Origin: a virus
DNA: 64,000 nucleotides
Direction: 5' to 3' (one strand)
IMG/VR virus record: IMGVR_UViG_3300045988_142892
Shown here: piece by piece, positions 7,729 to 47,355 of the stretch
Layout: each line of letters begins with the position of its first letter
How positions within the stretch are numbered: position 1 is the stretch's first letter
The notes under the pieces: generated by a model
Databases searched by the model: none
What the model was told of the DNA's origin: nothing
What the model saw: the letters and a program-made list of their open reading frames with translations, nothing else
Made by a program: the position numbers and the translations under genes

Positions 7729-7800
7729 TGAGGGGTAGCATAGCGGCAAATGCGCTGGTCTCTAAAACCAGATAAGTGGGATCGACACCCACCCCCTCCG
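7729..7800 (+). tRNA. Amber suppressor tRNA (anticodon CTA, reads UAG)
   Basis: Acceptor tgagggg/cccctcc (pair 1:72 is U-C); D-arm gcat-agcggcaa-atgc; perfect anticodon stem ctggt/accag with loop ctCTAaa (anticodon 7762-7764); T-arm gtggg-atcgaca-cccac; no CCA encoded. Consistent with the many in-frame TAGs in conserved domains. Confidence 0.7.
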
Positions 7801-8034
7801 CGGTGCTAAAAACAAAACCTCCTCGTGGTAGCACTGGGTAATGCTAATTTGTTTATAAAGGTAATAAAGGCAATATGTATAAAAGTCATTGATAAGTCCT
7901 TTTATACGATAGGAAGTAGGATTAGAAGCGTCCATCTTTTAAAGAGCGAAATGCGGCGATCGGGTATTTCCTTGGTCCAGTAGACACACTATCGGAGGTT
8001 GTGGGTTAACCTAATTAAAACCCTCAAAATAAAA

Positions 8035-8983: not shown

Positions 8984-10506
8984 ATGTCATATTTTAATGC
9001 TAGTTTGGACTGTGAAAATGGTACAATATATTGCTCTGGATCAGTAGATCCTCCTGTCATTACATCAATAGAACTTTATATTCGTATTAAAATAAATGGT
9101 ATAGACTCTGGTTATATTTATGTTGGAAGCGGTTCAAACAGAATACGTTTTAATGAAGAGATTCCAAATTATGATCATGTTAACTTTGATAGTTATAATG
9201 ATTATGAATTAATAGTATTAGATGGTGATTTATATGAATTAGGTGCTTATACTCCTTGCACTGGTTCTTTTTATGCTTCATCATCGGGAGGAGGAGGAGG
9301 AGGCGGTGGATCGGGCGGAACTGATCCAATGTACGCTTGTTATGATGTTACAACTGGAAATTATATAAACGGTTGGACGCAAGGTAGTTTTGGTATGACC
9401 GCTCCCTCTTATGGTAGTAGTTATACTTATTTAGGATATTGCCCTGGTAATTCAGAATAGGAATGTTTAAATTATTATACTAATAATGGCACTACATGGA
9501 GTCAAGATTCTACTTATATAGTAGGAGATTGTAGTTATGTTATATTTTTTTATAGACAAAATTTATCTTATGCTTATATAACTTATTATTATAATGGAGG
9601 ATCTGGTAGTTATAATAATGGAGCTCAAAATGCTTTTTCAAGTACAACTCAACCTTGGAACATATATTTAGATACTCCTTCGCGCTCTGGATATAATTTT
9701 TTAGGATGGACAACAGACAATTCATCAGCTTATGTGAGTAGTCCTATACAAGCATATAATGGTTCAACTTATACATTATATGCTATGTGGTAGCGAATTT
9801 ATTATTATACCTATATAACCTATCACTATAATGGAGGATCTGGTAGTTATAGTGATGGATAGCAAGTAAGTTATTCAAGTGTCAATTCTAGTCGAACTAT
9901 TACTTTAGATACTCCAACAAGAGCAAATTATACTTTTTTAGGTTGGGGAACCAGTTCTTCTTCTGCTGATATTGGCACACAACTATAGGTGTCATCTACA
10001 AGCACTGTATATAAAACTTTATACGCAATTTGGCGTAGAAATACAATTATTGTAACTTATAATGCAAATGGAGGTTCTGGTGGACCCGGATCATAGACTG
10101 TTAATACCAATTCTTCTTTTAATATAAATGGATCTAATTTTCCAACAAAGTCTAATTATATTTTTAAAGGATGGTCTACATCGTCTTCAGCAAAAACTGC
10201 AACTTATAAAAAAGGAGCAACACCTTCAATTTCTACTGGTACATCTAATATAACTTATTATGCAGTTTGGTGGCCTGTATTTACTTGGAAAGATTATTCC
10301 AGAAGTGAAGCAAATACTTTCGCAGGATATATAAATACTTATCTAAGTAAATCAATCTCTTCTATTGATGACACAAATCCTCTGCGGTTAGTTATTTGGT
10401 TTAATGCAATAGCTACGGCATTAAACAATAATACTAGACTTGCATCAGGAGACGCAAGTTTTAAAGCACAATTAGATACTCTATTAACTGCATATAATAA
10501 TTATTA
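8984..10506 (+). CDS. Listeria-Bacteroides repeat (Flg_new-type) protein, probable virion or cell-surface adhesin; reads through 5 in-frame TAGs
   Basis: About four repeats of the pattern YNGGSGSY..G.Q....S......L.TP.R..Y.FLGW.T.......Y...Y.LYA.W; Gly-rich tract SSSGGGGGGGGSGG; TAGs at 9458, 9791, 9860, 9986 and 10094 all in frame; stop TAA at 10504; RBS aaaaaggaggaaattaaatg. Confidence 0.6.
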
Positions 10507-10513
10507 AAATTAA

Positions 10514-10542
10514 TTGGCCTACTGAGAATTTCAGTAGGCCAA
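10514..10542 (+). terminator. Rho-independent terminator
   Basis: ttggcctactgagaatttcagtaggccaa followed by tttttt. Confidence 0.6.
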
Positions 10543-10611
10543 TTTTTTATATTCATAAAGAATATTTTTTTATATTATTTAGAATGATGTAATAAAAGAG
10601 GAGGCAATAAG

Positions 10612-10884
10612 ATGTATACTTTAACACATCAAAATGGTAAAGTTAATTATGGATTAAAAAAATTCATAGTTGATTCTGTTGAAGATATTGAAAAAATTCC
10701 AACAATTTCATTGCTCCCTGGCAGTACTGCTTTTATTCCTAAATCATCAAAATTATATATTTATCAAGATAATAATACTTGGGTTGAACAAAAATCCAAT
10801 AGTAATAATGGTAGTAGTGGCGGAAGCTCCGAACCTTCTAATCCTGATAATACATATGTTTGGGATGGCGGTAGTATTGATTAA
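10612..10884 (+). CDS. Hypothetical protein (90 aa)
   Basis: RBS aaaagaggaggcaataagatg. Confidence 0.45.
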   Translation: MYTLTHQNGKVNYGLKKFIVDSVEDIEKIPTISLLPGSTAFIPKSSKLYIYQDNNTWVEQKSNSNNGSSGGSSEPSNPDNTYVWDGGSID

Positions 10885-10898
10885 GGAGGTGCGTTTAG

Positions 10899-12152
10899 TT
10901 GGCTGATGTTTATATGAAATCAAAATTTTATTTTAAACGCGGAAAGGCAGCTTCTTGGGCTGAAAAAAATGTACTCTTAGGCCCTGGTGAGCCTGGGTTT
11001 GAAATAGATACTGGTAGATTGAAAGTTGGCGATGGTATTCGCACTTGGAATGATCTTCCTTACCTTACAGAAAATGAAATAAAAAACGGAATAAATGATG
11101 TTGCTTATTTTATTGGATAGAAAGAATCTTTACCAGAAGATCCAAATACTAAAGAAGGTACAATGTGTTTAGTCGGTGAAGATTTTTATATTTATGATGG
11201 AAAAGAATGGAGAGAATTAAAAAGCAAATCTTCTCAAGGAACTATTGAAGTTATAAAAATAAAAGGTGAAGATCAAGAATCTTCTTCTGCTGATGAAGTA
11301 GAAATTAATGGAACAAAATATTCCACTATTGAAGAAGCTATTCAAAATACCACTAATAATGATACAATAATTTTGTAGAAAACAGTCAAAAATATTAACA
11401 TTCCAGAAGGAAAAAATATTAATATTGATTTAAATAATATCAACATCTTAAATAACGAAGACAATCCAGTTAAAATTAATAATAACGCTTCTCTAATTAT
11501 TTCGGGAGAAGGATGCGTTGAATGTAATAAACATGGTAAAGCATCTATTGAAAATAATGGAAATACAACTATTATAAATGGTGAATATAAGCGTTCTATT
11601 GATGAAAAAGGTAATGGATATTACGTAATAGTAAACCATGGCGAAATGTCTATTTATGATGGAATATTTTCTTCTCCTGGTGGATTATCTAGTATGATTG
11701 AAAATGGATATTATGATTATCTTTCTCAATACCATTTAGGCGAGTCTGCGGAATATCCTAAATTAATTATTAATGGTGGTACTTTTATTAATACTTATAC
11801 TACTATTAAAAATGATGATGCTGGTATTTGTGAAATTAATGGTGGTAATTTTTATGGTATGCTTTATAACGTTGGTAAAAGTTTAACTATAAATGATGGT
11901 TATTTCTATACTAATGATGGCTATGAAATTATTCAATGTAAAAAAAATAATGATGATATTAATGCTGGTATTTTAACTATTAATGGAGGAATTTTTGAAA
12001 CTACTTGCGATAAAATTCTTTCTAGTATAAATAATGCCGAAATTATTATTAAAGGTGGAAAATTTAATAAACCTCTACCCGAAGAATTTATTGCTTCTGG
12101 ATATAAACAAAAATTAGTAGATGGTTATTATAATATAATAAAGGAGGGATAA
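10899..12152 (+). CDS. Tail fibre protein (paralogue 1) with beta-helix-like repeats; reads through 2 in-frame TAGs
   Basis: Conserved N-terminal fibre motif KRGKAASWAEKNVLLGPGEPGFEIDTGRLKVGDGIRTWNDLPYL; track ORFs 10899, 11163 and 11646 share one frame; TAGs at 11118 and 11376; INGGTF / INGGNF / INGGIF repeats. Confidence 0.6.
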
Positions 12153-12153
12153 T

Positions 12154-12498
12154 ATGGCGTTTAATGTTATCTATGCAGATAAAAATAAAATTAAATCCAG
12201 CATTAAACAAGGTATTATTCCAAAAGAAAGCCTAATTTTAACAACTGATGAAAATCAATCAGAGGCTTATTATTATGATGATGTTGGTAAATTAAAATAT
12301 ATTACTAAAAAAACATCATTTAGTTCTTTACTGGAAGCTCGCATTTGGGTTGCTAAATACGACTATGAAGGTGAGATTATTTCAGTTTATGAAAATAATA
12401 AGTGGGTTCCCTATATTGTTGGTAAAAATCAAGTTATTACCGCTATTCAATACGGTCAAGATGATGATTATACTCTCATTAATGGTGGAAACGCTTAA
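12154..12498 (+). CDS. Hypothetical tail-fibre-associated protein (114 aa)
   Basis: Sits within the fibre cassette; C-terminal LINGGNA, the same tail motif as the C-terminus of the 13784-16870 fibre. Confidence 0.45.
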   Translation: MAFNVIYADKNKIKSSIKQGIIPKESLILTTDENQSEAYYYDDVGKLKYITKKTSFSSLLEARIWVAKYDYEGEIISVYENNKWVPYIVGKNQVITAIQYGQDDDYTLINGGNA

Positions 12499-12528
12499 TA
12501 TAAAAAAAAATAGGAGGATAATATATTT

Positions 12529-13767
12529 ATGGCTAGTAAGACCTTAAATACTCGCATCCAAATTCGCAATGACCTCGCGGCGACCTGGACTGAAAAAAAT
12601 CCTGTGCTCCTTAAAGGTGAAATGGGTGTCGAGACTGATACTCGTAAAATTAAAATTGGCGATGGCTTAAGTAAGTGGTCTGCTCTTGGTTATTCTGGGG
12701 CAGATGTTGCTGATATTGAAAAAGTTATTGCCGACAATCGTGATACTACCTATTCTTTAGAACCAGTTGCTGATCAAACTGATGCTCAAGCTCTTGGTAC
12801 AATTGAGTCTCCTAAAGATGGTGACACTGCCATTATTAAGCGTGTTATTTCTGGCGACAAAGCTTCTTATACCGCTTATGTTTATGATGGCACTTGGAAA
12901 GCAATGGATGGCAACTATAATGCTAATAATGTTTACTTTGATAAAGATTTGACTTATACGGCTAATATTGGCGTTAAGACTGTTCCCGATTCTGGCTCCG
13001 GCACTATTGCAGCTGCTGGTAAGAATGTTCAACAAGTTTTTGCTGATATTCTTGCTAAAGAAGAGAATCCTGTCACTACTCAACCTAGTGCTTCTATGAG
13101 CTCTTCTAATATTGGAGCTTATGAGGCAGGTACTGATGTAACTATTCAATACAGTATTTCTACCAATCCTGGTTCTTATACTTATGGACCTAATCCAACA
13201 GGTGTTACTTTCTCTGGTCATAAGGCTACTTTTAATGGTGAAACAGTTACTGGTGCTTCTGGAACCTTTACATCTGTTAAAGTTACTGATTCTACTAATT
13301 TAAGTATTAGTGGTTCTGTTGATTATTCTAACGGTGAAATTCCTGTGACCAATTTAGGTAATAACTATACTTCTGGTCAGATTAAGACCGGTACCAAGAC
13401 TCTTTCTAAGGGTACTTTGACTGGTTATCGTAACTGGTTCTATGGTTATAAAGCTGGCGGCGCTACTATTGATGTTTCTGCACTTGATTCTGCTAAGATT
13501 CGTGCTTTAAAGGCACAAAATGGTAGTTTCCCTGCTACTCTTAGTACAAACAAAATGCAACAGATGTTCTTTGCCATTCCAAAAGGCAGAAAAACTGAAG
13601 TGTCTGTTGCTAATAATGTTAATGGTGCTCCTTGTACTGTTACTAAAGTAACTGATGTTATGGTTGAAGGTGCTAATGGCTTTACTGCTGTTGCCTATGA
13701 TGTCTGGTATGTTAATAATGCAGCTGCTGACGGTGGCGCAAATACATATAAGATTACTGTTAAGTAA
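12529..13767 (+). CDS. Tail fibre protein (paralogue 2)
   Basis: N-terminal ATWTEKNPVLLKGEMGVETDTRKIKIGDGLSKWSALGY; Ser/Thr/Gly-rich beta-rich remainder; RBS aataggaggataatatatttatg. Confidence 0.65.
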   Translation: MASKTLNTRIQIRNDLAATWTEKNPVLLKGEMGVETDTRKIKIGDGLSKWSALGYSGADVADIEKVIADNRDTTYSLEPVADQTDAQALGTIESPKDGDTAIIKRVISGDKASYTAYVYDGTWKAMDGNYNANNVYFDKDLTYTANIGVKTVPDSGSGTIAAAGKNVQQVFADILAKEENPVTTQPSASMSSSNIGAYEAGTDVTIQYSISTNPGSYTYGPNPTGVTFSGHKATFNGETVTGASGTFTSVKVTDSTNLSISGSVDYSNGEIPVTNLGNNYTSGQIKTGTKTLSKGTLTGYRNWFYGYKAGGATIDVSALDSAKIRALKAQNGSFPATLSTNKMQQMFFAIPKGRKTEVSVANNVNGAPCTVTKVTDVMVEGANGFTAVAYDVWYVNNAAADGGANTYKITVK

Positions 13768-13783
13768 GGAGGATATATAATAT

Positions 13784-16700
13784 ATGACTCGCGAAGAATT
13801 TTTTGCCGCTAAAAATAAAGGCGCTTTATGGGATGTTGGCGTAAGTATTAACCGCACTAACCCACTGCCCCTTGATAAGAATGCGGTTTTTGATACTTAT
13901 GAAAATGCCCTTACTTATGCTAAAGGTGTTTTAGCTTATCCTGGTCAGTTTATCGCTGTCGTTGGCGAAGACGCGGTTACCGGTTATTTAATCACTGTTG
14001 CAGGTGGTGAAGGAGCTACTCTTGTTAAGCTCGCTCAAACTTCTGGTTCTGGTGATGTTAACGAGCAATTAAATGCTTTATCTACTAAAGTTAATAATAT
14101 CGTTAATGAAATTGGTAAAGCCTCTACAGATGGCTCCGATGCTACTGGTCTTTATAAACTTATTGAAGCTAATAAAAATGCTATTACTGTTTTAAATGGT
14201 ACTGTTCAGACAGAGGGTTCAGTCAAGAAAACTGTTTCTGATGAAATTGCTAAAGTTATTGGCAAAGCGCCTGAGACTTTTGATACTTTACAAGAAATTG
14301 CTACTTGGATTGAAACTCATGGTACACAAGCTACTGGAATGCAGACTGCTATTAGCAAACTTGAAACTATTCTTGAAGGTATTGGTGGCGAAGGAGAAAA
14401 GGCTACTGTAGTTGCTTATGTTACCGATGCTATTAATGCATTAAAGAATGGTGATATTAAAACTGCTTAGGATAATTTAGCAGCTCTTACCACACGTGTA
14501 GATGGACATGATACTAAGCTCGGTGAACTTGAAACTGCGATTGCTGGGGTAAAGGCTACTGCGGATGCAGCTGTTGTTGCTAACGCTAGTATCACTGGTG
14601 GAACAGCTACTAAAGTTACTTTTGATAGTAAGGGCTTAATTACTGGTAGTAGTTCTTTAGTTGCGGAAGATATTCCAAATATTGCTATCAGTTAGGTTGA
14701 TAACCTTTCTAGTGAGTTAAGCAAGAAACAAAATAATCTTGCTATTAGCGATAAATATAGTGAAACTACTTCTAAGATTGCTTCTATGAAGGATATTACT
14801 GATGCTTCTAATGCAATTCTTGGTGATTCTGCCACTGATACTGAAGCTTCTAATACTCTGGCTGGTCTTAAGAAGTATGCTGATAAAAAAGCTTCTGACG
14901 CTGAGTCTAATGCTAAAGCCGATACAAAGAGTAAAACCGATGCTCTTGATGCTCGTTTAAAGAGCGTTGAAGATGCTGTTGGTTCTACTGGTAGTGTTTC
15001 TGAAGCTATTAAAGCTGCTAAGGAAGAAGCTATTAATGCCGCTGCTACTGACGCTACAACTAAAGTTAATGCTGCTAAAACTGATATCCTTGGTGCAGAA
15101 GGTTATACTCATACTGTAAAGGATGCTTATGAATTAGCTGATGGTAAGACTACTATGGCTGAGGTTGAAGCCAAGGATTATGCTACCAAGAGTTATGTTG
15201 ATACTCAAGATGGCGTACTCAAAGGCACTGTTGCTGACCAAGATACCGAAGTTACCATTTATGGTGCTCGTAAGTTAGCTCAGAAAGGCATTGATGACGC
15301 AGCTGCTGCTAAAACTGCCGCTGATAATTACAATACTGCTTTAACTAATACTATCAGTACTGTTAAGAGCGATTTACTTGGCTCTACTGAAGATGATAGC
15401 ACTAAAGAAACCATTCGTGGCGCACGTAAGTATTCTGAAGCTAAAGCTAATGCTGTCCTTGGTACTGCTCAAGATACTGCTTCTGAAAAGACAGTTTATG
15501 GTGCATTCGCCGCAGCTAAAGCCGCACAGGACAAGGCTAATGCCAATGAAACGGCTATTGGTTCTGATACTACTACTGGTTCAGTAAAGGGTCGTATCAA
15601 AACTTTAGAAACCACTTCTGCTAGCTATGGCGCTCGTATTACTAAGAACGAATCCGATATTGCCTCTCTCGTTGGTAATATGTCTGGCGTCTTCCATTTC
15701 AAGGGCGCAGCAACTAAAACTGGTACTGAACTTTATGTAAGTGGCGCTCAAGTAGTTGAAAAAGCAGTTGGTGACGTTTATACCGTTGGCGAGGAAGAAT
15801 ACGCTTGGTCTGGATCTGCCTGGATTATGCTTGGTATTACTACCGATCTTTCTAACTATTATGATAAGAGCGCAATTGATAAAAAGATTGCAGGCTTCTC
15901 TGGGGCTTTCCACTTCAAGGGTGTTGCTAATCAATTCGATAATGTTGGTGCTCCTATTGTTTCTAATCCTGCTGAAGGTGACGTTTGGCTTGATAATGAT
16001 AATGCACAATGGGCTTGGAATGGCGAGAAATGGATTAAACTTGGTTTCTTAACTGATCTTACTGGTTATGCTACCACTGCTGAAGTTGATGCTAAAATTG
16101 AAGGTGCTCTTCAAGGACTTTATACTTTTAAGGGTGAAATTGAATCTCTTGATAATGTTGTTAGTCCAACCCGTGGCGACGTTTATGTCGTTCCTCAAAA
16201 AGATGGCTCTAAAAAGCAATATGCCTATTCTGGTGATGGCAACTGGGTAGAAATCTCTACTAATGTCGATTTAAGTGCTTATGCTTTAACTACTGCGGTT
16301 GATGAAAAGATCCGTGTTGCCAAGAATCAAGCAAATAATCTTGCTACTGAGCTTTCCGCCACTGCTGAAACTAATGCTAAAGCTTATACTGACACTCAGC
16401 TTGATACTCTTAAGGGTGGTTCTACTAAGACCATTAAAGAAATTCAAACTGTTGCTGAAAGTGCTCAAACTCAGGCTGGTACTAATGCTAACGCAATTAC
16501 TGCAATTAATACTTCTCTCACTGAGACTGGAACTGTTGGTAGAAAGATAAAAGCTAATGCGGATGCTATTAGAGCTATCCAAGAGGCAGATTATGCAAGA
16601 ATTACTTCTGAGAAAATCGCCCAGTGGGATGCTGCTCAACCTAATGTAATTGAAAAGATTCAAGTTAATGGCACTGAAATCGCAATTAGTGAAAAGACTG

Positions 16701-16870
16701 TTAATATTCCTCTTGCTACCGCAGCTCGCGCAGGTTTAATTATTAGCTCTGATGCTGAAAATGCTATTAGCGTTTCTGATACTGGTGTAGCTACTGTTAA
16801 TAATATAAATGTTAATAAATTAGTTCAAACCGCTGGTGATGAACTTATTCTTAACGGTGGAAATGCTTAA
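13784..16870 (+). CDS. Large tail fibre protein (about 1028 aa); reads through 2 in-frame TAGs
   Basis: Track ORFs 13784-14470 and 14786-16870 share one frame; TAGs at 14468 and 14693; long Ala/Thr-rich coiled-coil-like repeats (DTLQEIATWIETHG; repeated GAFHFKG...GDVW modules). Confidence 0.6.
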
Positions 16871-16888
16871 TTAAATAAATAATAAATA

Positions 16889-16913
16889 AAGAGGGGATTT
16901 ATTTCCCCTCTTT
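16889..16913 (+). terminator. Rho-independent terminator
   Basis: agaggggatttatttcccctcttt followed by a T-rich run. Confidence 0.65.
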
Positions 16914-16956
16914 ATTTCATATATATAGATATTTTTAAATATGGAGGTTCTTAAAA

Positions 16957-18300
16957 ATGGCTAATACAGCATTTAATACTCGTATTAAATTAAAGTATGA
17001 TACTCTGGCCAATTGGACTACTAATGAAGCAAAAGTTTTATTAGCTGGTGAAGTTGGTCTTTGTTATGTGCCTTCTGTAACTTCTGGAACTACTACAACT
17101 GCCCCTACTATCTTATTTAAAGTCGGTGATGGCGAAACAGCTTGGGGAAGATTACCTTGGGGTTCCGGTCTTGCTGCGGACGTTTATGATTGGGCTAAAA
17201 CTCCCACAAAACCATCTTATGATTATAGTGAGATTAAAAATACTCCCACTATGACTGTAGATACTAATACTACTTATAAATTAGTTCAAGATGGTACTAA
17301 TAATCATAAATTTACTTTACAAAGTAAAGAAAAGAATAGTGAAAATTGGATTCCAGTATCTACTATTACTATTCCAGATAATAACAATAACCAAACTATT
17401 ACCGTTGGGTCTACTTCCTTTGGGGCAGATGATGCTGTAAAGTTAGTGGCTGGTGATGGAATTACTATTACTCCTGATTCAACTGGGAAGACAATTACAA
17501 TTACTGCTAGTAAAGTTGCTAATGCAACTCATGCCGATAATGCGACTAATGCTACAAGCGCTGGTAAAGTAGCTAACGCTTTAACTCTTCAGGTTGGTGG
17601 TACTACTAAAGCTACATTTGATGGTTCTTCTGCGAAAACCTTTAATATTACTGCAGGAGATCTTGGTCTTAGCTCTGCGATGCATTTTGTTGGTGCTGCT
17701 ACTGTTGCTATTACCGAAGATTCTAAAGTTGATCCGGAAATCACTGGTTATACTTTTGCTAATGCTCAAAAAGGTGACGTAGTTCTTTATAACCATTTAG
17801 AATTTGTATGGGACGGCACTAAGTGGGAAAAACTTGGTGATGATAGCTCTTATGCTTTAAAGACTATCACTGCTACTGCTACTGATGATGACGTAGTAGT
17901 TTTAACCGGTACTTCTGGTTCTAATGGCGTCACTTTTGATGCCAAACATGCTAAGAAAGGTCCAACAGGTGGCGCAACTAAGGGCGCAACCGCAAATGTA
18001 AGTGTTTCTGGTTATGGCGCTTCTGGATCCATTAAAGTTCCAAAAGTCGTAGTTGATGAATATGGTCATACTACTGGTTTAACTGAACAAACATTAACTA
18101 TTACGATGCCAAATCAGCAAACTCTTCCTGTCGCTGGAAGTGTTGCTCCTAAAAATCTTGGAACAGCTACAGTTGGTACTTCTGCTAAATATGCTCGTGA
18201 AGACCACGTTCATAAGATGCCCACCTTAGATGAAATTAGTGTTAATACTAATGCTAATTATGTCATTTTTGACTGCGGAAGTTCTACGGTAAATATTTAA
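16957..18300 (+). CDS. Tail fibre protein (paralogue 4)
   Basis: N-terminal LANWTTNEAKVLLAGEVGL...KVGDGETAWGRLPW; RBS aatatggaggttcttaaaaatg. Confidence 0.65.
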   Translation: MANTAFNTRIKLKYDTLANWTTNEAKVLLAGEVGLCYVPSVTSGTTTTAPTILFKVGDGETAWGRLPWGSGLAADVYDWAKTPTKPSYDYSEIKNTPTMTVDTNTTYKLVQDGTNNHKFTLQSKEKNSENWIPVSTITIPDNNNNQTITVGSTSFGADDAVKLVAGDGITITPDSTGKTITITASKVANATHADNATNATSAGKVANALTLQVGGTTKATFDGSSAKTFNITAGDLGLSSAMHFVGAATVAITEDSKVDPEITGYTFANAQKGDVVLYNHLEFVWDGTKWEKLGDDSSYALKTITATATDDDVVVLTGTSGSNGVTFDAKHAKKGPTGGATKGATANVSVSGYGASGSIKVPKVVVDEYGHTTGLTEQTLTITMPNQQTLPVAGSVAPKNLGTATVGTSAKYAREDHVHKMPTLDEISVNTNANYVIFDCGSSTVNI

Positions 18301-18302
18301 TT

Positions 18303-18330
18303 AAAGGCTCTCTTAATTGAGAGCCTTTTT
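18303..18330 (+). terminator. Rho-independent terminator
   Basis: aaaggctctcttaattgagagccttttt. Confidence 0.65.
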
Positions 18331-18542
18331 CTTTTTGGACTAAAATATGCAATTATATTATTTAAAATTTTAATATATTTTAGAAAATAATAAGTTTGAA
18401 ATTGATAACTTATTTTGAATATATATATTTTACTCTTTTGGAAATAGATGATTGAGAAAGATATAAAATTATGGGGATAAATATCTTTATATCTATTTTT
18501 AAAGATATTTATCCCCATAATTTTATTTAAGGAGAAAATATA

Positions 18543-19811
18543 ATGGCAAATAAAACATTTCAAGGCCGTATTGTTCAAAAGCACGATACAGAAGCAAATT
18601 GGGAAAAAGCAACTAATTTCATTCCTTTAAAAGGCGAAATTATTGTTTATGATGATTTAAATAAAATAAAAATAGGTGATGGAAGTACTAAAGTAGGAGA
18701 CCTTGCTTTTACTAATGATTTAGACACTTTAGCTGCAATAGCTAAAACAGGTAGTTATAGTGATTTAAAAAATAAACCAACTATTCCATCTGTTGGAAAT
18801 GGTACATTAACTATTCAAAAGAATGGCACATCAGCTGGAACTTTTACAGCAAATGCCACTACTGATAAAACCATTAATATTATAGTACCTACAAAAGTTA
18901 GTGAATTAACTGATGATGTTGTAAAGGGAAAATATTTACCTCTCACTGGCGGCACTATGACGGGAAAACTGACAGTTCCGCAGGTTGAGACTGGCGATGG
19001 CAATTCAAATTTTTTCCAGTGCAGAAAATTCCGTGGCGAAGGGAACGCAGATACTTATTATCATGCCATTGATTTTGGATACAAAAACCATGACCAGGTT
19101 GATTTCCATGAGTACGGAGGAAAATGGAATTTTTACAAAAACCAGTCCGGGAAAGTTAACGAAGGCGTTTTGTGCGGCAGTATCACCAGCAACGGCTGGG
19201 AAGGACGCGCAAAACTCAAAAGCGGTTCCACTATGGTTACTTCCCAATTGACCGAAAACAGCGATGCCATTGCCACAACTGCATTTGTCCACGGGCTTGT
19301 TGATAATGTTAAGCATTATTCAGCATCCAATCCACCTCCTTATCCAGTTACAAGCGTAAATGGGAAAACAGGTGCAGTTCAATTAACAACTGCTGATATT
19401 GACCTTGATTCCAGTATTATGTTTTTAAATAAAACAAATACTATGACGGCTAATGGCAAAATTACTATGGATAGTTCATATACGCCAGGCGCTGATGGAG
19501 ATATTGCGACAAAAAAATATGTAGATAATTCTACACCAGCAACATTTACCGCTTCTAAGGCTGGTACAGTACCCGCTTCAGGAGGCGGAACCACGAAATA
19601 TCTACGAGCAGATGGTACTTGGACTACTATAGATAAAACACCAGTAATAGGTACAAATACTAATTGTGCTATTTATATTGGGACAACGGCTCCTGCTTCA
19701 GGTACCACTCCACTTCTTTGGATTGACACTACTTCTTCAACTGGATTTCTTAAATATAGAAGTTCTAACACCAGTGCTTGGACTGCCGTTCCTGTCGCTT
19801 GGACTGAATAA
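18543..19811 (+). CDS. Tail fibre protein (paralogue 5)
   Basis: N-terminal EANWEKATNFIPLKGEIIVYDDLNKIKIGDGSTKVGDLAF; RBS taaggagaaaatataatg. Confidence 0.65.
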   Translation: MANKTFQGRIVQKHDTEANWEKATNFIPLKGEIIVYDDLNKIKIGDGSTKVGDLAFTNDLDTLAAIAKTGSYSDLKNKPTIPSVGNGTLTIQKNGTSAGTFTANATTDKTINIIVPTKVSELTDDVVKGKYLPLTGGTMTGKLTVPQVETGDGNSNFFQCRKFRGEGNADTYYHAIDFGYKNHDQVDFHEYGGKWNFYKNQSGKVNEGVLCGSITSNGWEGRAKLKSGSTMVTSQLTENSDAIATTAFVHGLVDNVKHYSASNPPPYPVTSVNGKTGAVQLTTADIDLDSSIMFLNKTNTMTANGKITMDSSYTPGADGDIATKKYVDNSTPATFTASKAGTVPASGGGTTKYLRADGTWTTIDKTPVIGTNTNCAIYIGTTAPASGTTPLLWIDTTSSTGFLKYRSSNTSAWTAVPVAWTE

Positions 19812-19825
19812 GGAATAGATCTATT

Positions 19826-20269
19826 ATGGAACATCGCATTAAAATTTTTTTCTTTTTAGATCAAGAAGATTTTGGGGATAAGCGTAATTGTTCTTTAACG
19901 AGTATAACATCTATTTGTTATACTCGTTTCAGAAATCCTTCTGAAAAAGAAATCTATAATATAGTTGAATCTATTGGAAAAAAATATTGTTATAATGATA
20001 AGCGAGGAACTAATCCTTTACTTATTAAAAATATTTTTAATAAATCTTTAGAATATTTTTCTAAACAAAAATGTCAAACTCATTCAAATTATTTAAAAGA
20101 ATTTGGATATAATTTTACTACAATTAAAAATTTAATTGACATGAATAAACCTGTTATTCTATCTTTCTGGAAATGTGAAAAATATTCTAATCATACAATT
20201 ACAATAATTGGATATAATGATAAAACACAAGATTTGATAATTGCGGATAATTGGTCCAAAAGACCATAG
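19826..20269 (+). CDS. Papain-like (C39-like) cysteine peptidase domain protein
   Basis: Candidate catalytic Cys in NCSLTSI and His in SNHTITIIGYND; 147 aa. Confidence 0.4.
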   Translation: MEHRIKIFFFLDQEDFGDKRNCSLTSITSICYTRFRNPSEKEIYNIVESIGKKYCYNDKRGTNPLLIKNIFNKSLEYFSKQKCQTHSNYLKEFGYNFTTIKNLIDMNKPVILSFWKCEKYSNHTITIIGYNDKTQDLIIADNWSKRP

Positions 20270-20327
20270 AAAATCAATTATAAAAATATCTCAACGATTT
20301 CCTCAATAAACTACTTTTAAAAATTTT

Positions 20328-22035: not shown

Positions 22036-22365
22036 TTAAATAATAATAGCTAACGGCAGTTGCCTCTAATGAAAATTAGATAGACGGGTCGGGGTTGACA
22101 TAGACAGGTCAACAGGTAGTACAGCAGTAGGTAACAAATCTGCAAGTCGAAATAAGTTGGGAAAACCAAATGATACGGCTTAGTCCTTCGTAAGAAGTTG
22201 AAGAGAGATTTTAGGTAAAAGATAACAACTTTTAACTGCTCTTCGTAATTGACCATGAAACCGGGTCATAGCTACCATATTATTATTTAAGTTAATCTAA
22301 AAGGAGTGAGTCCAATGGGTTCTCGAATGGCCATCTTTTAACATCTTTTAAAGGAGGTTAAAAGA
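22036..22365 (+). ncRNA. ORF-free region of about 330 nt after tRNA-Leu; candidate structured RNA
   Basis: No ORF; hairpins gttgacatagacaggtcaac and gaccatgaaaccgggtcat; ends at an RBS aaaggaggttaaaagaatg. Confidence 0.2.
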
Positions 22366-45552: not shown

Positions 45553-45584
45553 AAGAAAGAGAAGATTTACTTCTTCTCTTTCTT
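45553..45584 (+). terminator. Rho-independent terminator
   Basis: aagaaagagaagatttacttcttctctttctt. Confidence 0.65.
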
Positions 45585-45610
45585 TTTTATTTTATAGAAA
45601 GGAGGATAAT

Positions 45611-46912
45611 ATGACTAATATTGAAATAGCTTGGAATTATTTGTATAAACAAATAAAAAATCCTTATGGGACGGCCGGACTAATGGGAAACTTAAAAGCT
45701 GAATCAAATTTTAATCCAAAAAATCTTCAAAACAGTTTTGAAAAGACACTTGGATTAAATGATGAATAGTATACAAAACAAGTCGATAATGGTAAATATA
45801 CTAATTTTATTTATGACAAAGCTGGATATGGTTTAGCTCAATGGACCTATTGGAGTCTTAAAAAACAATTATATGATTTTACAAAAAAGAAAAATACTTC
45901 AATAGGAAATTTAAATACGCAACTTGAATTTTTAATTTATCAACTTTCTACATATTATCCTACCGTTTGGAATACTTTAATAAATTGTAAAGATATATAG
46001 ACTGCTTCAAATATAGTTTTAACATAGTTTGAACGACCAAAAGATTAGAGTTTAAAAATTCAATAGTAGAGATTATATTATGGAGTTGAAATATATGATC
46101 AATTTATAGGAAAAGGTGAAGATATGAAAATTGTAGATAATTTAACAACATCTAATTATCAAAAAGGTAATAATAGAAAAATAAAATATATTGTAATACA
46201 TTATTTCGGTTCTTTAGGAACAGCAAAAAATATTAGTAATTATTTCAAAAACCCTGCCGCTAAATCATCAGCTCATTATTGTGTTGATGAAAAAGATATT
46301 ATTTATCGTAGTGTTAAAGATGAAGATATCGCTTGGCACTGTGGCACCAGAAAAGGATATAAACATCCTGAGTGTAGAAATGCTAATTCCATTGGAATTG
46401 AAGTAAGACCTTGTAAAATAAATAAATCTAATATTGTAGCCAGTGATACTGATTGGTATTTTGATCCAAAAGCATTAGAAAATACAATACAATTAGTAAA
46501 ACAATTAATGTAGAAATATAATATACCTGCGGACCACGTTATTCGCCACTATGATGTAACTGGTAAATTATGTCCTCGTCCGTTGTGCGGAACTGACATG
46601 AATAGTTATTATAGAACAAGTGGCGATTACCAATGGTAGTTATTTAAACAAAAAATTGGTAATAATATAAATATTAATGAGGAGGATGAAGATATGACTT
46701 AGGATAAATTTAATGAGATGATGGAAGTTTATTTAAATCAACAAGCCGAAAAAAATGCAAGTTCTTGGTCTGAAAAGGAAAGAACTTGGGCTGAAAATAA
46801 AGGATACATTAAAGGCGATAGTTTAAATCGTAAGATGTATAAAAAATTTATGACTCGTGAAGAAATGATTGTAGTTCTTTATAGAATTATGAAAGATAAA
46901 GGGTTGGTGTAA
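45611..46912 (+). CDS. Multidomain endolysin: phage-lysozyme-2-like domain plus amidase_2 (N-acetylmuramoyl-L-alanine amidase) plus C-terminal domain; reads through about 9 in-frame TAGs
   Basis: One frame is open from ATG 45611 to TAA 46910 if TAG is read as sense. N-terminal YGTAGLMGNLKAESNFNP...FERP is lysozyme-like; IVIHYFGS...AHYCVDE...IRHYDVTGKLCPRP is amidase_2. TAGs at 45767, 45998, 46025, 46046, 46064, 46067, 46511, 46637 and 46700. Confidence 0.55.
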
Positions 46913-46913
46913 T

Positions 46914-47309
46914 ATGAAACAAAAAAGAGAATTTTCTAAAACTCTGTTAATTCAAGAGTCTGCCTTAATTTGGATTTCAACATTAGCATATATTGTTTTA
47001 GCATTTTATTGTATTTATAATGGATATATGGGTTCTTTACCCTGGCTTACCGCAAGCGCAAGTCTTCCTTGGGCGGCATATGGCGTGAGCCAAGTATATT
47101 ATTATAAAAAATCAATGGCTGAAAATACTAAAGATGGCGTTAAATATGCTTCAGTTATGAAAGAGCTTGATGAAGCTTATAATAATTATAAAAAAGAATT
47201 AAATAATACACCAACAGTAGATAATACTGAAACCACTTCTATGAGTTATTATACCGAAGACGATTATAGCGATAATAGTGATCCTATAAATACTGATTAT
47301 GGTATTTAA
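46914..47309 (+). CDS. Holin candidate (two-TM membrane protein)
   Basis: Two hydrophobic helices (LIWISTLAYIVLAFYCIY; LPWLTASASLPWAAYGV) and an acidic C-terminus; directly downstream of the endolysin. Confidence 0.45.
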   Translation: MKQKREFSKTLLIQESALIWISTLAYIVLAFYCIYNGYMGSLPWLTASASLPWAAYGVSQVYYYKKSMAENTKDGVKYASVMKELDEAYNNYKKELNNTPTVDNTETTSMSYYTEDDYSDNSDPINTDYGI

Positions 47310-47326
47310 TATAAAATTGGATAGTA

Positions 47327-47355
47327 TATTTTATATACTATCCAATTTTTTTATT
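47327..47355 (+). terminator. Rho-independent terminator
   Basis: ttggatagtatattttatatactatccaa followed by ttttttt. Confidence 0.65.

Follow-up and report, generated by a model that had tools for sequence, protein, structure and literature searches.

The stretch of DNA analysed here (hereafter, the window) is the 64,000-nucleotide viral record IMGVR_UViG_3300045988_142892 of IMG/VR, and the gene in question is an endolysin gene on its plus strand at 45611-46912. As read from the sequence, this frame comprises 433 codons followed by a TAA at 46910-46912; it starts with an ATG at 45611, 5 nt downstream of a Shine-Dalgarno (SD) motif, and it stays open as far as the terminal TAA only with read-through of nine in-frame TAG codons, there being no TAA or TGA ahead of that stop. 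Comparison of its domains, codons and relatives suggests that the gene very probably encodes one fused three-domain endolysin, with an N-terminal lysozyme of the phi29 gp13 type, an Amidase_2 domain and a C-terminal domain of about 72 amino acids (aa), and that the phage carrying it is a large one from the gut, with TAG read as glutamine and a host probably among the Bacillota. The features of the gene are as follows.

45600..45605, plus strand: Shine-Dalgarno motif AGGAGG, read from the sequence
45611..46912, plus strand: endolysin coding sequence, with its nine TAGs read as glutamine
45617..46105, plus strand: Phage_lysozyme2 (PF18013) domain, holding TAG codons 53, 130, 139, 146, 152 and 153
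45767..45769, plus strand: TAG codon 53, the earliest in-frame TAG of the gene; glutamine in 51% of homologues
45998..46069, plus strand: cluster of five TAGs (codons 130, 139, 146, 152 and 153), with a tandem TAG-TAG at 46064-46069
46113..46126, plus strand: linker 1, an SD-like AAGGTGA and then an in-frame ATG (codon 172); candidate start of an isoform of amidase plus C-terminal domain
46172..46582, plus strand: Amidase_2 (PF01510) domain, holding TAG codon 301 (46511-46513)
46637..46639, plus strand: TAG codon 343, which is CAA in the related contigs L026 and L005
46679..46696, plus strand: linker 2, GAGGAGGA, 7 nt and then an in-frame ATG (codon 362); candidate start of a free C-terminal domain
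46694..46909, plus strand: C-terminal domain of about 72 aa, with TAG codon 364 (46700-46702) as its third codon

The nine TAGs stand at codons 53, 130, 139, 146, 152, 153, 301, 343 and 364 (first nucleotides 45767, 45998, 46025, 46046, 46064, 46067, 46511, 46637 and 46700). A preliminary description of this locus had reported a frame open only through TAG read-through, with five TAGs that included the tandem pair; the read-through and the listed positions are exact, and the total is nine rather than five. It had also placed the lysozyme and Amidase_2 domains in one frame with no TAA or TGA between them, on which the Pfam matches and the reading of the frame agree. At the window's out-of-frame stop rate, a frame of 433 codons free of TAA and TGA would arise by chance with P ~1e-12, and the probability that nine of nine stops are TAG is ~5e-8. 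With TAG taken as a stop, the region falls apart into fragments of 52, 129 and 64 aa and nothing longer, and no open reading frame (ORF) of at least 40 aa lies on the opposite strand. When the TAGs were shuffled among the gene's 25 glutamine-type codons, at least five fell within 24 codons with P = 0.013; codons 130-153 contain six glutamine-type codons and, with this local richness allowed for, the cluster is only modestly unusual. The TAG-TAG adjacency is not unusual (P = 0.31 by the same shuffle), because codons 151-153 read Q-Q-Q. The bases 3' of the nine TAGs (T, A, T, A, T, A, A, T, G) show no bias.

Pfam places Phage_lysozyme2 at aa 3-165 (profile positions 2-140 of 140, E = 1.7e-27, 96.8 bits against a Pfam cut-off of 28.2) and Amidase_2 at aa 188-324 (E = 3.9e-26, 92.4 bits, cut-off 26), and the protein also matches PHROG endolysin families. 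An AlphaFold2 model was made for P0001, a database protein 96% identical to that of the window: residues 1-165 are confident, with a predicted local distance difference test (pLDDT) score of 88-97 that drops at residues 168-171, and the amidase and C-terminal parts, at pLDDT below 60, were left uninterpreted. In this model the lysozyme domain closes with helices 129-141 and 148-165; codons 130 and 139 fall in the first and codons 152-153 in the second, and the segment formed by these last two helices includes the family-invariant residues A132, V136, L137, E141, P143, R154 and Y162. Pfam and the model thus put the five-TAG cluster inside the last two lysozyme helices and not at the domain linker, where the preliminary description had located it; the true lysozyme-amidase linker is roughly aa 166-172.

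In a Foldseek comparison, residues 1-165 of the model aligned with the lysozyme domain of phi29 gp13 (3csr, 159 residues) over about 167 columns, with a template modelling (TM) score of 0.68 on the target. The likeness to gp13 (3csr, 3csq) lies in the lysozyme fold: gp13 is a tail-tip enzyme in which this fold is fused to an M23 peptidase, whereas the window lysozyme shares its polypeptide with an amidase and a small module that resembles S-layer-homology (SLH) domains, in an endolysin context beside a putative holin. The amidase region resembles by sequence those of the Amidase_2 endolysins PlyL and XlyA (1yb0, 3hmb; E ~3e-10). The C-terminal domain matched no Pfam family above threshold, and its resemblance to a single SLH module (PDB 6cwc, E = 0.021; Pfam SLH, E = 0.04 in one of 12 family members) is weak; it is presumed to be a cell-wall-binding domain, weakly SLH-like.

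The preliminary description had proposed that alignments would tell whether homologues are fused or split, and they are fused. All of the 120 best matches have Amidase_2, and all but six also have Phage_lysozyme2 in the same protein. Standard-code, TAG-free homologues with the order lysozyme, amidase, C-terminal domain are encoded on contigs L007 and L008 (P0005), L011 (P0004), L029 (P0018) and L030 (P0006); they are 42-54% identical over 97-100% of the query and translate under genetic code 11. A TAA or TGA after the lysozyme domain, which the same description had named as telling against it, is absent from all nine same-order homologues whose DNA was read. Its suggestion of a single multidomain endolysin therefore holds, since standard-code relatives encode the same three-domain fusion without any TAG, and the fusion of the three domains is genuine. 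It is very unlikely that the TAGs are instead real stops and that lysozyme, amidase and binding domain are three separate genes in the same frame, each with its own ribosome-binding site. Such an arrangement would explain why codons 172 and 362 are start codons preceded by SD-like motifs, and ORF calling under the standard code does return pieces of 52, 129 and 64 aa; however, each of the three genes would itself be cut by TAGs within its Pfam domain or at its third codon (53, 130-153, 301, 343, 364), neither domain boundary has a TAG, and the same motifs and starts occur in standard-code homologues in which the frame is continuous and is called as one protein.

Several lines of comparison indicate that this phage lineage reads TAG as glutamine (genetic code 15). 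The public protein database holds homologues with Q at the TAGs (P0001, P0002 and P0003, 96, 73 and 68% identical), and under code 11 their contigs give no translation to those proteins. Fifteen IMG/VR contigs of up to 197 kb carry the endolysin gene at 91-97% nucleotide identity, and every TAG difference among them (at codons 139, 153, 294, 343, 364 and 378) is a swap with CAA or CAG: at codons 294 and 364 all three codons are seen, and in L023 codons 139 and 153 are both CAA, reducing the tandem pair to one TAG. More distant recoded relatives have four (L005), ten (L006), two (L009) and two (L031) TAGs, mostly at other positions, and some have TAG where the window has CAA, including at the family-invariant Q104 (L006). 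Across 115 homologues the share of glutamine is 97% at codon 146, 51% at codon 53, 41% at codon 364 and 20% at codon 139, against a background of 3.5%, and the remaining TAG sites are variable polar positions.

About a dozen other genes of the window use TAG as a sense codon as well: with the endolysin included, 37 in-frame TAGs are spread over about 12 of some 50 genes, some of them within Pfam matches (NAGPA, Flg_new repeats, GmrSD_N and the DnaB N-terminal domain). A DnaB-like helicase (59989-61521) has in-frame TAGs at residues 23 and 59, and its residues 4-508 align, across both TAGs, with standard-code helicases of Enterococcus, Bacillus and Staphylococcus phages; with its TAGs inside the aligned region, this replication gene therefore also depends on a suppressor. 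The curated window genes can all end in TAA (42) or TGA (8). In crAss-like phages, the reassignment of TAG to glutamine has been demonstrated by proteomics (PMC9523058).

Three further genes bear on TAG use. In two of them, at 59466-59999 and 19826-20320, a TAG lies 6 and 16 codons, respectively, before the TAA, the former just ahead of the DnaB start and the latter directly after a Peptidase_C39_2 match; these near-terminal TAGs may be genuine terminators with a back-up TAA. The third, at 5047-5904, encodes a cell-wall-related protein with a NAGPA phosphodiester glycosidase and a SPOR domain, and has two in-frame TAGs.

There is next to no chance that the gene is a pseudogene decaying through nonsense mutations, or that its TAGs encode pyrrolysine. 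Decay would explain nine premature stops under the standard code; yet all nine are TAG, and the frame has no other stops and no frameshifts in the window or in more than 20 related contigs, the protein being 92-96% conserved in at least 15 contigs from different samples. Pyrrolysine is suggested by the label 'Pyl' that ARAGORN gives to a CTA-anticodon tRNA of the window, a label that reflects the anticodon only. Pyrrolysine decoding was rejected: TAG aligns with glutamine positions and swaps with CAA or CAG only, and the tRNA folds as a standard cloverleaf whose D-loop has GG. A Pfam scan of 26 ORFs, which was not an exhaustive pyl search, gave no match suggesting pyl genes.

This tRNA is one of 22 in the first 27 kb of the window (21 found by ARAGORN and one more through Rfam), and it is followed directly by a candidate ribozyme of the hepatitis delta virus (HDV)-like class.

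7729..7801, plus strand: suppressor tRNA, anticodon CTA (Rfam tRNA, 52.3 bits; also called by ARAGORN)
7802..7856, plus strand: candidate minimal HDV-like (theta-type) ribozyme (RF02682, 27.7 bits), whose helices pair

The suppressor tRNA has a mismatched U1.C72 pair, G73 and C74. Whereas 17 of the 22 window tRNAs encode CCA, this one does not, its 3' end reading ...G73-C. In tRNAs, glutamine identity is favoured by a weak pair at 1:72, by G73 and by a CUA anticodon, so that this tRNA probably carries glutamine. The tRNAs found in the window include no tRNA-Gln, whereas the related phage L032 has a tRNA-Gln(TTG) beside its suppressor; identities of 50-60% to all the other window tRNAs and to a relative's tRNA-Gln(TTG) were uninformative about the ancestry of the suppressor. 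The predicted cleavage site of the candidate ribozyme, 5' of G7802, abuts the tRNA 3' end at 7801. Its P1 (6 bp, the first G.U), P1.1 (2 bp), P2 (7 bp) and P3 (3 bp) all pair, with a J4/2 cytosine at 7844, and its match to Rfam HDV-F-prausnitzii (RF02682) reaches 27.7 bits (E = 5e-4 on a 76-nt stretch), short of the gathering score of 44. Theta ribozymes are known to adjoin suppressor tRNAs (Kienbeck et al. 2024, PMC10879173), and the window shares with those an HDV-like core straight after a CUA tRNA, a cleavage site at the tRNA 3' end, a tRNA without CCA and a gut-phage context; it differs in that its ribozyme, predicted from sequence, matches a related Rfam family only, and below threshold.

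An identical 55-nt ribozyme follows a different CTA-anticodon tRNA in each of three closely related phages (L032 5830-5974, minus strand; L033 1319-1455; L034 1688-1841). All three tRNAs have a mismatched 1:72 pair, G73 and C74, and one of them is 90 nt long with a long variable region, its anticodon arm being that of the neighbouring tRNA-Tyr but for G34->C34. The window tRNA missed by ARAGORN lies at 1215-1290 (plus strand, anticodon CAT, 39 bits), and a weak tRNA-like Rfam match (6602-6676, plus strand, 25 bits) stands between tRNA-Pro and tRNA-Val. Two other RNA elements were matched: a RAGATH-33 RNA at 22049-22177 (plus strand, 126.8 bits, above the Rfam gathering score), within the tRNA-rich region, and a twister-P1 ribozyme at 2292-2342 (plus strand, E = 6e-6), flanked by small ORFs and tRNA-Ser, whose 41 bits fall below the gathering score of 67.

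We propose that the adjoining self-cleaving ribozyme would free the 3' end of the CCA-less suppressor tRNA, which, once abundant enough, would out-compete host release factor 1. All nine TAGs would need to be decoded for any active endolysin to form. With a per-codon suppression p, the full-length yield would scale as about p^9, or 0.2% at p = 0.5 and 39% at p = 0.9, and the two-TAG DnaB helicase would reach 25 and 81% at the same values. No active endolysin would thus be expected under the host's standard code, and its yield would rise steeply once suppression became efficient. Termination at any of the TAGs would leave an inactive fragment rather than a lysozyme-only enzyme, and shorter isoforms, if there are any, would most likely come from internal initiation at codons 172 and 362 and not from termination.

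The preliminary description had offered a different device, in which leaky termination at the clustered TAGs would give a functional lysozyme-only protein alongside the full-length enzyme, the ratio of the two being set by the efficiency of read-through. The absence of TAA or TGA between the domains and the mildly non-random spacing of five TAGs in 24 codons would suit such a device, but we consider it most improbable. A TAG at codon 53 precedes the cluster, and stopping there would give a 52-aa peptide; the cluster is inside the fold, so stopping at codons 130-153 would lose two helices and seven invariant residues; and three more TAGs lie downstream. Moreover, TAG number and position vary between lineages: L005, L006 and L009 lack the cluster, and L023 has lost the tandem pair. 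Standard-code relatives make the fusion only. Programmed two-isoform read-through requires a stop at the domain boundary, conserved in position; this gene has no conserved stop there, and its orthologues carry anywhere from two to ten TAGs. Like Qbeta A1 and murine leukaemia virus (MuLV) gag-pol, the gene gives its long product only if in-frame stops are decoded. In those systems, however, host tRNAs read one leaky stop, conserved and placed at a domain boundary, and the short product is functional. The window gene has instead nine TAGs that lie inside domains and are not conserved, with a suppressor tRNA dedicated to them, and its short products are not expected to function.

Whether the heavy TAG load of the fused endolysin is itself adaptive is a separate matter. 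TAG makes up 9 of the 25 glutamine codons of the gene and 28 of 416 elsewhere in the window (Fisher P = 6e-5), and the gene has the highest TAG density in the window, at 2.1 per 100 codons where the remaining genes have 0.19 (Poisson P = 2.5e-7). It is possible, though we hold the idea only tentatively, that this load has been selected as a safety lock or timer that responds to the suppressor-tRNA level like a switch, as in the model of Borges et al. (bioRxiv 10.1101/2021.08.26.457843), who reported a bias toward recoded stops in the lysis amidase and spanin of crAss-like phages and proposed a role in lysis timing. Besides its density, the surrounding 28 kb argues for such selection: none of the other curated genes between 26.9 and 55.0 kb, including PIN/PhoH, the 131-aa gene next to the endolysin, DUF5662, GyrB, GyrA and a ligase, contains a TAG. 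Every recoded orthologue examined retains at least two TAGs, lysis-gene bias toward recoded stops has been published for two other phage lineages, and the p^9 versus p^2 arithmetic would separate the endolysin from a two-TAG gene.

Several points weigh against our overall interpretation, and in particular against an adaptive late timer. The fused endolysin of a TAG-to-glutamine phage is predicted here from gene sequences and their comparison; the glutamine identity of the suppressor tRNA is deduced from codon comparisons and acceptor features; and the Rfam match of the candidate ribozyme falls below its gathering score. As to the timer, the TAG count of orthologues varies five-fold (2 to 10) with turnover of positions, and a repeat protein at 8984-10507 has the same TAG share as the endolysin (5 of 14 glutamine codons). 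The helicase, a GIY-YIG nuclease and a GmrSD-like gene also carry TAGs, so suppression would already be working before or during replication and the switch would not be purely late. The adjoining putative holin is TAG-free; in canonical systems it is the holin that sets the time of lysis, and a cytoplasmic endolysin is harmless until the holin fires. Finally, a six-frame scan of the window found no GGQ release-factor motif.

The TAG enrichment may instead have no function, an explanation that we put a little short of an even chance. Once a suppressor exists, CAG-to-TAG and CAA-to-TAG changes could drift almost neutrally in AT-rich, weakly expressed genes, and TAG would be purged only from genes that are needed before suppression or are highly expressed. 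Consistent with drift, TAG is confined to genes with a low GC content at third codon positions (GC3, 0.13-0.22) that otherwise use CAA, and high-GC3 genes, in which glutamine is almost all CAG, lack it; two further facts point the same way, namely that contigs sharing 91-97% nucleotide identity differ three ways (TAG, CAG or CAA) at codons 294 and 364, and that TAG positions turn over between lineages. Nevertheless, equally AT-rich genes without TAG exist, namely PhoH (13 CAA), the replication-module gene at 61708-62811 (13; primase-like by eye, with no Pfam match) and an AAA_24 gene (12). TAG is also strongly over-dispersed among genes, and the endolysin is the extreme case of the window and is TAG-bearing in four recoded lineages. 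The coupling of lysis-enzyme synthesis to the supply of suppressor tRNA is a reasonable idea, and one that Borges et al. (bioRxiv 10.1101/2021.08.26.457843) and Kienbeck et al. (PMC10879173) have put into print before.

Codon usage divides the window genes more broadly. A high-GC3 class (26895-28424, 28542-31040, 41986-43371 and 54708-54977; GC3 0.39-0.48) uses 59 CAG against one CAA, mostly AAG for lysine, and no TAG; its members are a DUF2828/DUF7788 protein, a major-vault-protein-like protein (MVP shoulder and vault repeat), an SPFH/flotillin protein and a small basic protein. The remaining genes have GC3 of 0.13-0.25 and use CAA. TAGs are uneven in a tail-fibre-like gene run at 8984-19811, in which Pfam marks one product as a Listeria-Bacteroides repeat protein and another as having the N-terminal domain of a major tropism determinant, and in which three more Mtd_N-like N-termini were recognized by eye only: three genes of the run have 5, 2 and 2 TAGs, and the three by-eye genes have none.

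The gene also appears to carry internal start sites. We compared ten homologues for which DNA was available (among them L005, L006, L007, L009, L011, L023, L029, L030 and L031). At linker 1, an SD-like motif with ATG, GTG or TTG is present in nine of the ten, and one of the standard-code ORFs of the window begins at the codon-172 start. At linker 2, where the SD (46679-46686) precedes an ATG at 46694 that opens the C-terminal domain, GGAGGA stands 7-9 nt before an in-frame ATG or GTG in all ten, including five standard-code homologues of 47-51% GC; in L009 the methionine has become valine, encoded by GTG and so still a start codon, and GAG-GAG is kept at this site though the genome uses GAA at 82%. 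This conservation suggests nested isoforms made by internal initiation, one of amidase plus binding domain and one of the binding domain alone, and internal initiation is the likelier source of short products, if such exist. SLH modules normally act in threes, which offers a speculative rationale for extra free copies of the C-terminal domain.

Comparable arrangements are known from other endolysins. CTP1L and Lys170 also have an SD and a start at the head of the C-terminal binding domain, and phi2638A has a second SD and start between its two catalytic domains. The window gene differs from the internal-start endolysins CTP1L, CD27L, Lys170, LysIME-EF1 and phi2638A (PMC4777826, PMC9430671, PMC7098653, PMC12203907) in that its short products are deduced from sequence only, and unlike theirs its short frames also hold TAGs (301, 343 and 364). 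Two nested starts in one gene are our reading of the locus and not a case described among these enzymes.

A more elaborate scheme, which we regard as unlikely, would join two layers of control: nested isoforms from codons 172 and 362, and a TAG load weighted toward the lysozyme. The code switch would then pick which isoforms are made, and the number of TAGs per gene (two in DnaB, nine here) would act as a graded delay line while the suppressor accumulates. In L005 and L009 all TAGs lie upstream of the equivalent of the codon-172 start; if the scheme were true, their isoform of amidase plus binding domain would be translatable under the standard code, and the lysozyme-bearing form would need the suppressor.

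The endolysin stands between two terminator-like hairpins together with the small gene that follows it.

45553..45584, plus strand: terminator-like hairpin and T-run after the PIN/PhoH gene and before the endolysin SD, a 13-pair stem and then TTTTATTTTA; a consensus match only
46914..47309, plus strand: TAG-free gene of 131 aa that begins 1 nt beyond the endolysin TAA; a putative holin on positional grounds only
47313..47349, plus strand: terminator-like hairpin closing the pair of endolysin and 131-aa gene

Hydropathy shows a hydrophobic stretch near the N-terminus of the 131-aa protein (about aa 12-43), and the tail of the protein is acidic. It matched no family in PHROGs or Pfam, and its gene is kept downstream of the endolysin in L001 and L005. 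A promoter scan returned no more promoter-like sites than shuffled sequence, and a megablast of positions 40000-64000 against INPHARED phages gave no match. The phage is well represented in metagenomes, and its helicase and endolysin relatives indicate that the host is probably a member of the Bacillota.

Taken together, the gene belongs to a known type: a recoded gene of a code-15 phage with a suppressor tRNA and an adjoining HDV-like ribozyme, encoding a common fused endolysin architecture. The window resembles the code-15 gut phages (crAss-like, Lak, and the large Jade, Sapphire and Agate clades of Borges et al., which infect Firmicutes) in that TAG aligns with glutamine, the phage encodes a tRNA(CUA) within a large tRNA set, recoded genes occur in several modules with variable TAG use in replication genes, and a lysis enzyme is among the most recoded genes; its relatives, at up to 197 kb, are in the size range reported for Sapphire and Jade. 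Unlike code-15 clades with a 'code-change module', the window has none in evidence, with no GGQ motif and no synthetase-like Pfam match among the 26 ORFs scanned, a scan that was not aimed at tRNA synthetases. It also differs from these clades in that its recoded endolysin sits among TAG-free genes of replication and nucleotide metabolism and not beside structural genes.

The observation from which this analysis started is real and useful for correct annotation, and the regulatory idea that survives from it is already in the literature; the internal starts and the tRNA-ribozyme cassette are useful leads within phenomena already described. The value of the finding is mainly one of annotation: under the standard code the endolysin is split into pieces (52, 129 and 64 aa) and the phage as a whole seems heavily broken up, whereas the code-15 reading gives a normal, well-conserved endolysin. 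It also provides a clean case from a large phage of the Bacillota type in which the heaviest TAG load falls on one lysis enzyme amid TAG-free genes. The highest TAG density in the endolysin fits the published idea that recoding gates lysis, and its position among TAG-free genes therefore makes this enzyme a convenient candidate for testing that idea.

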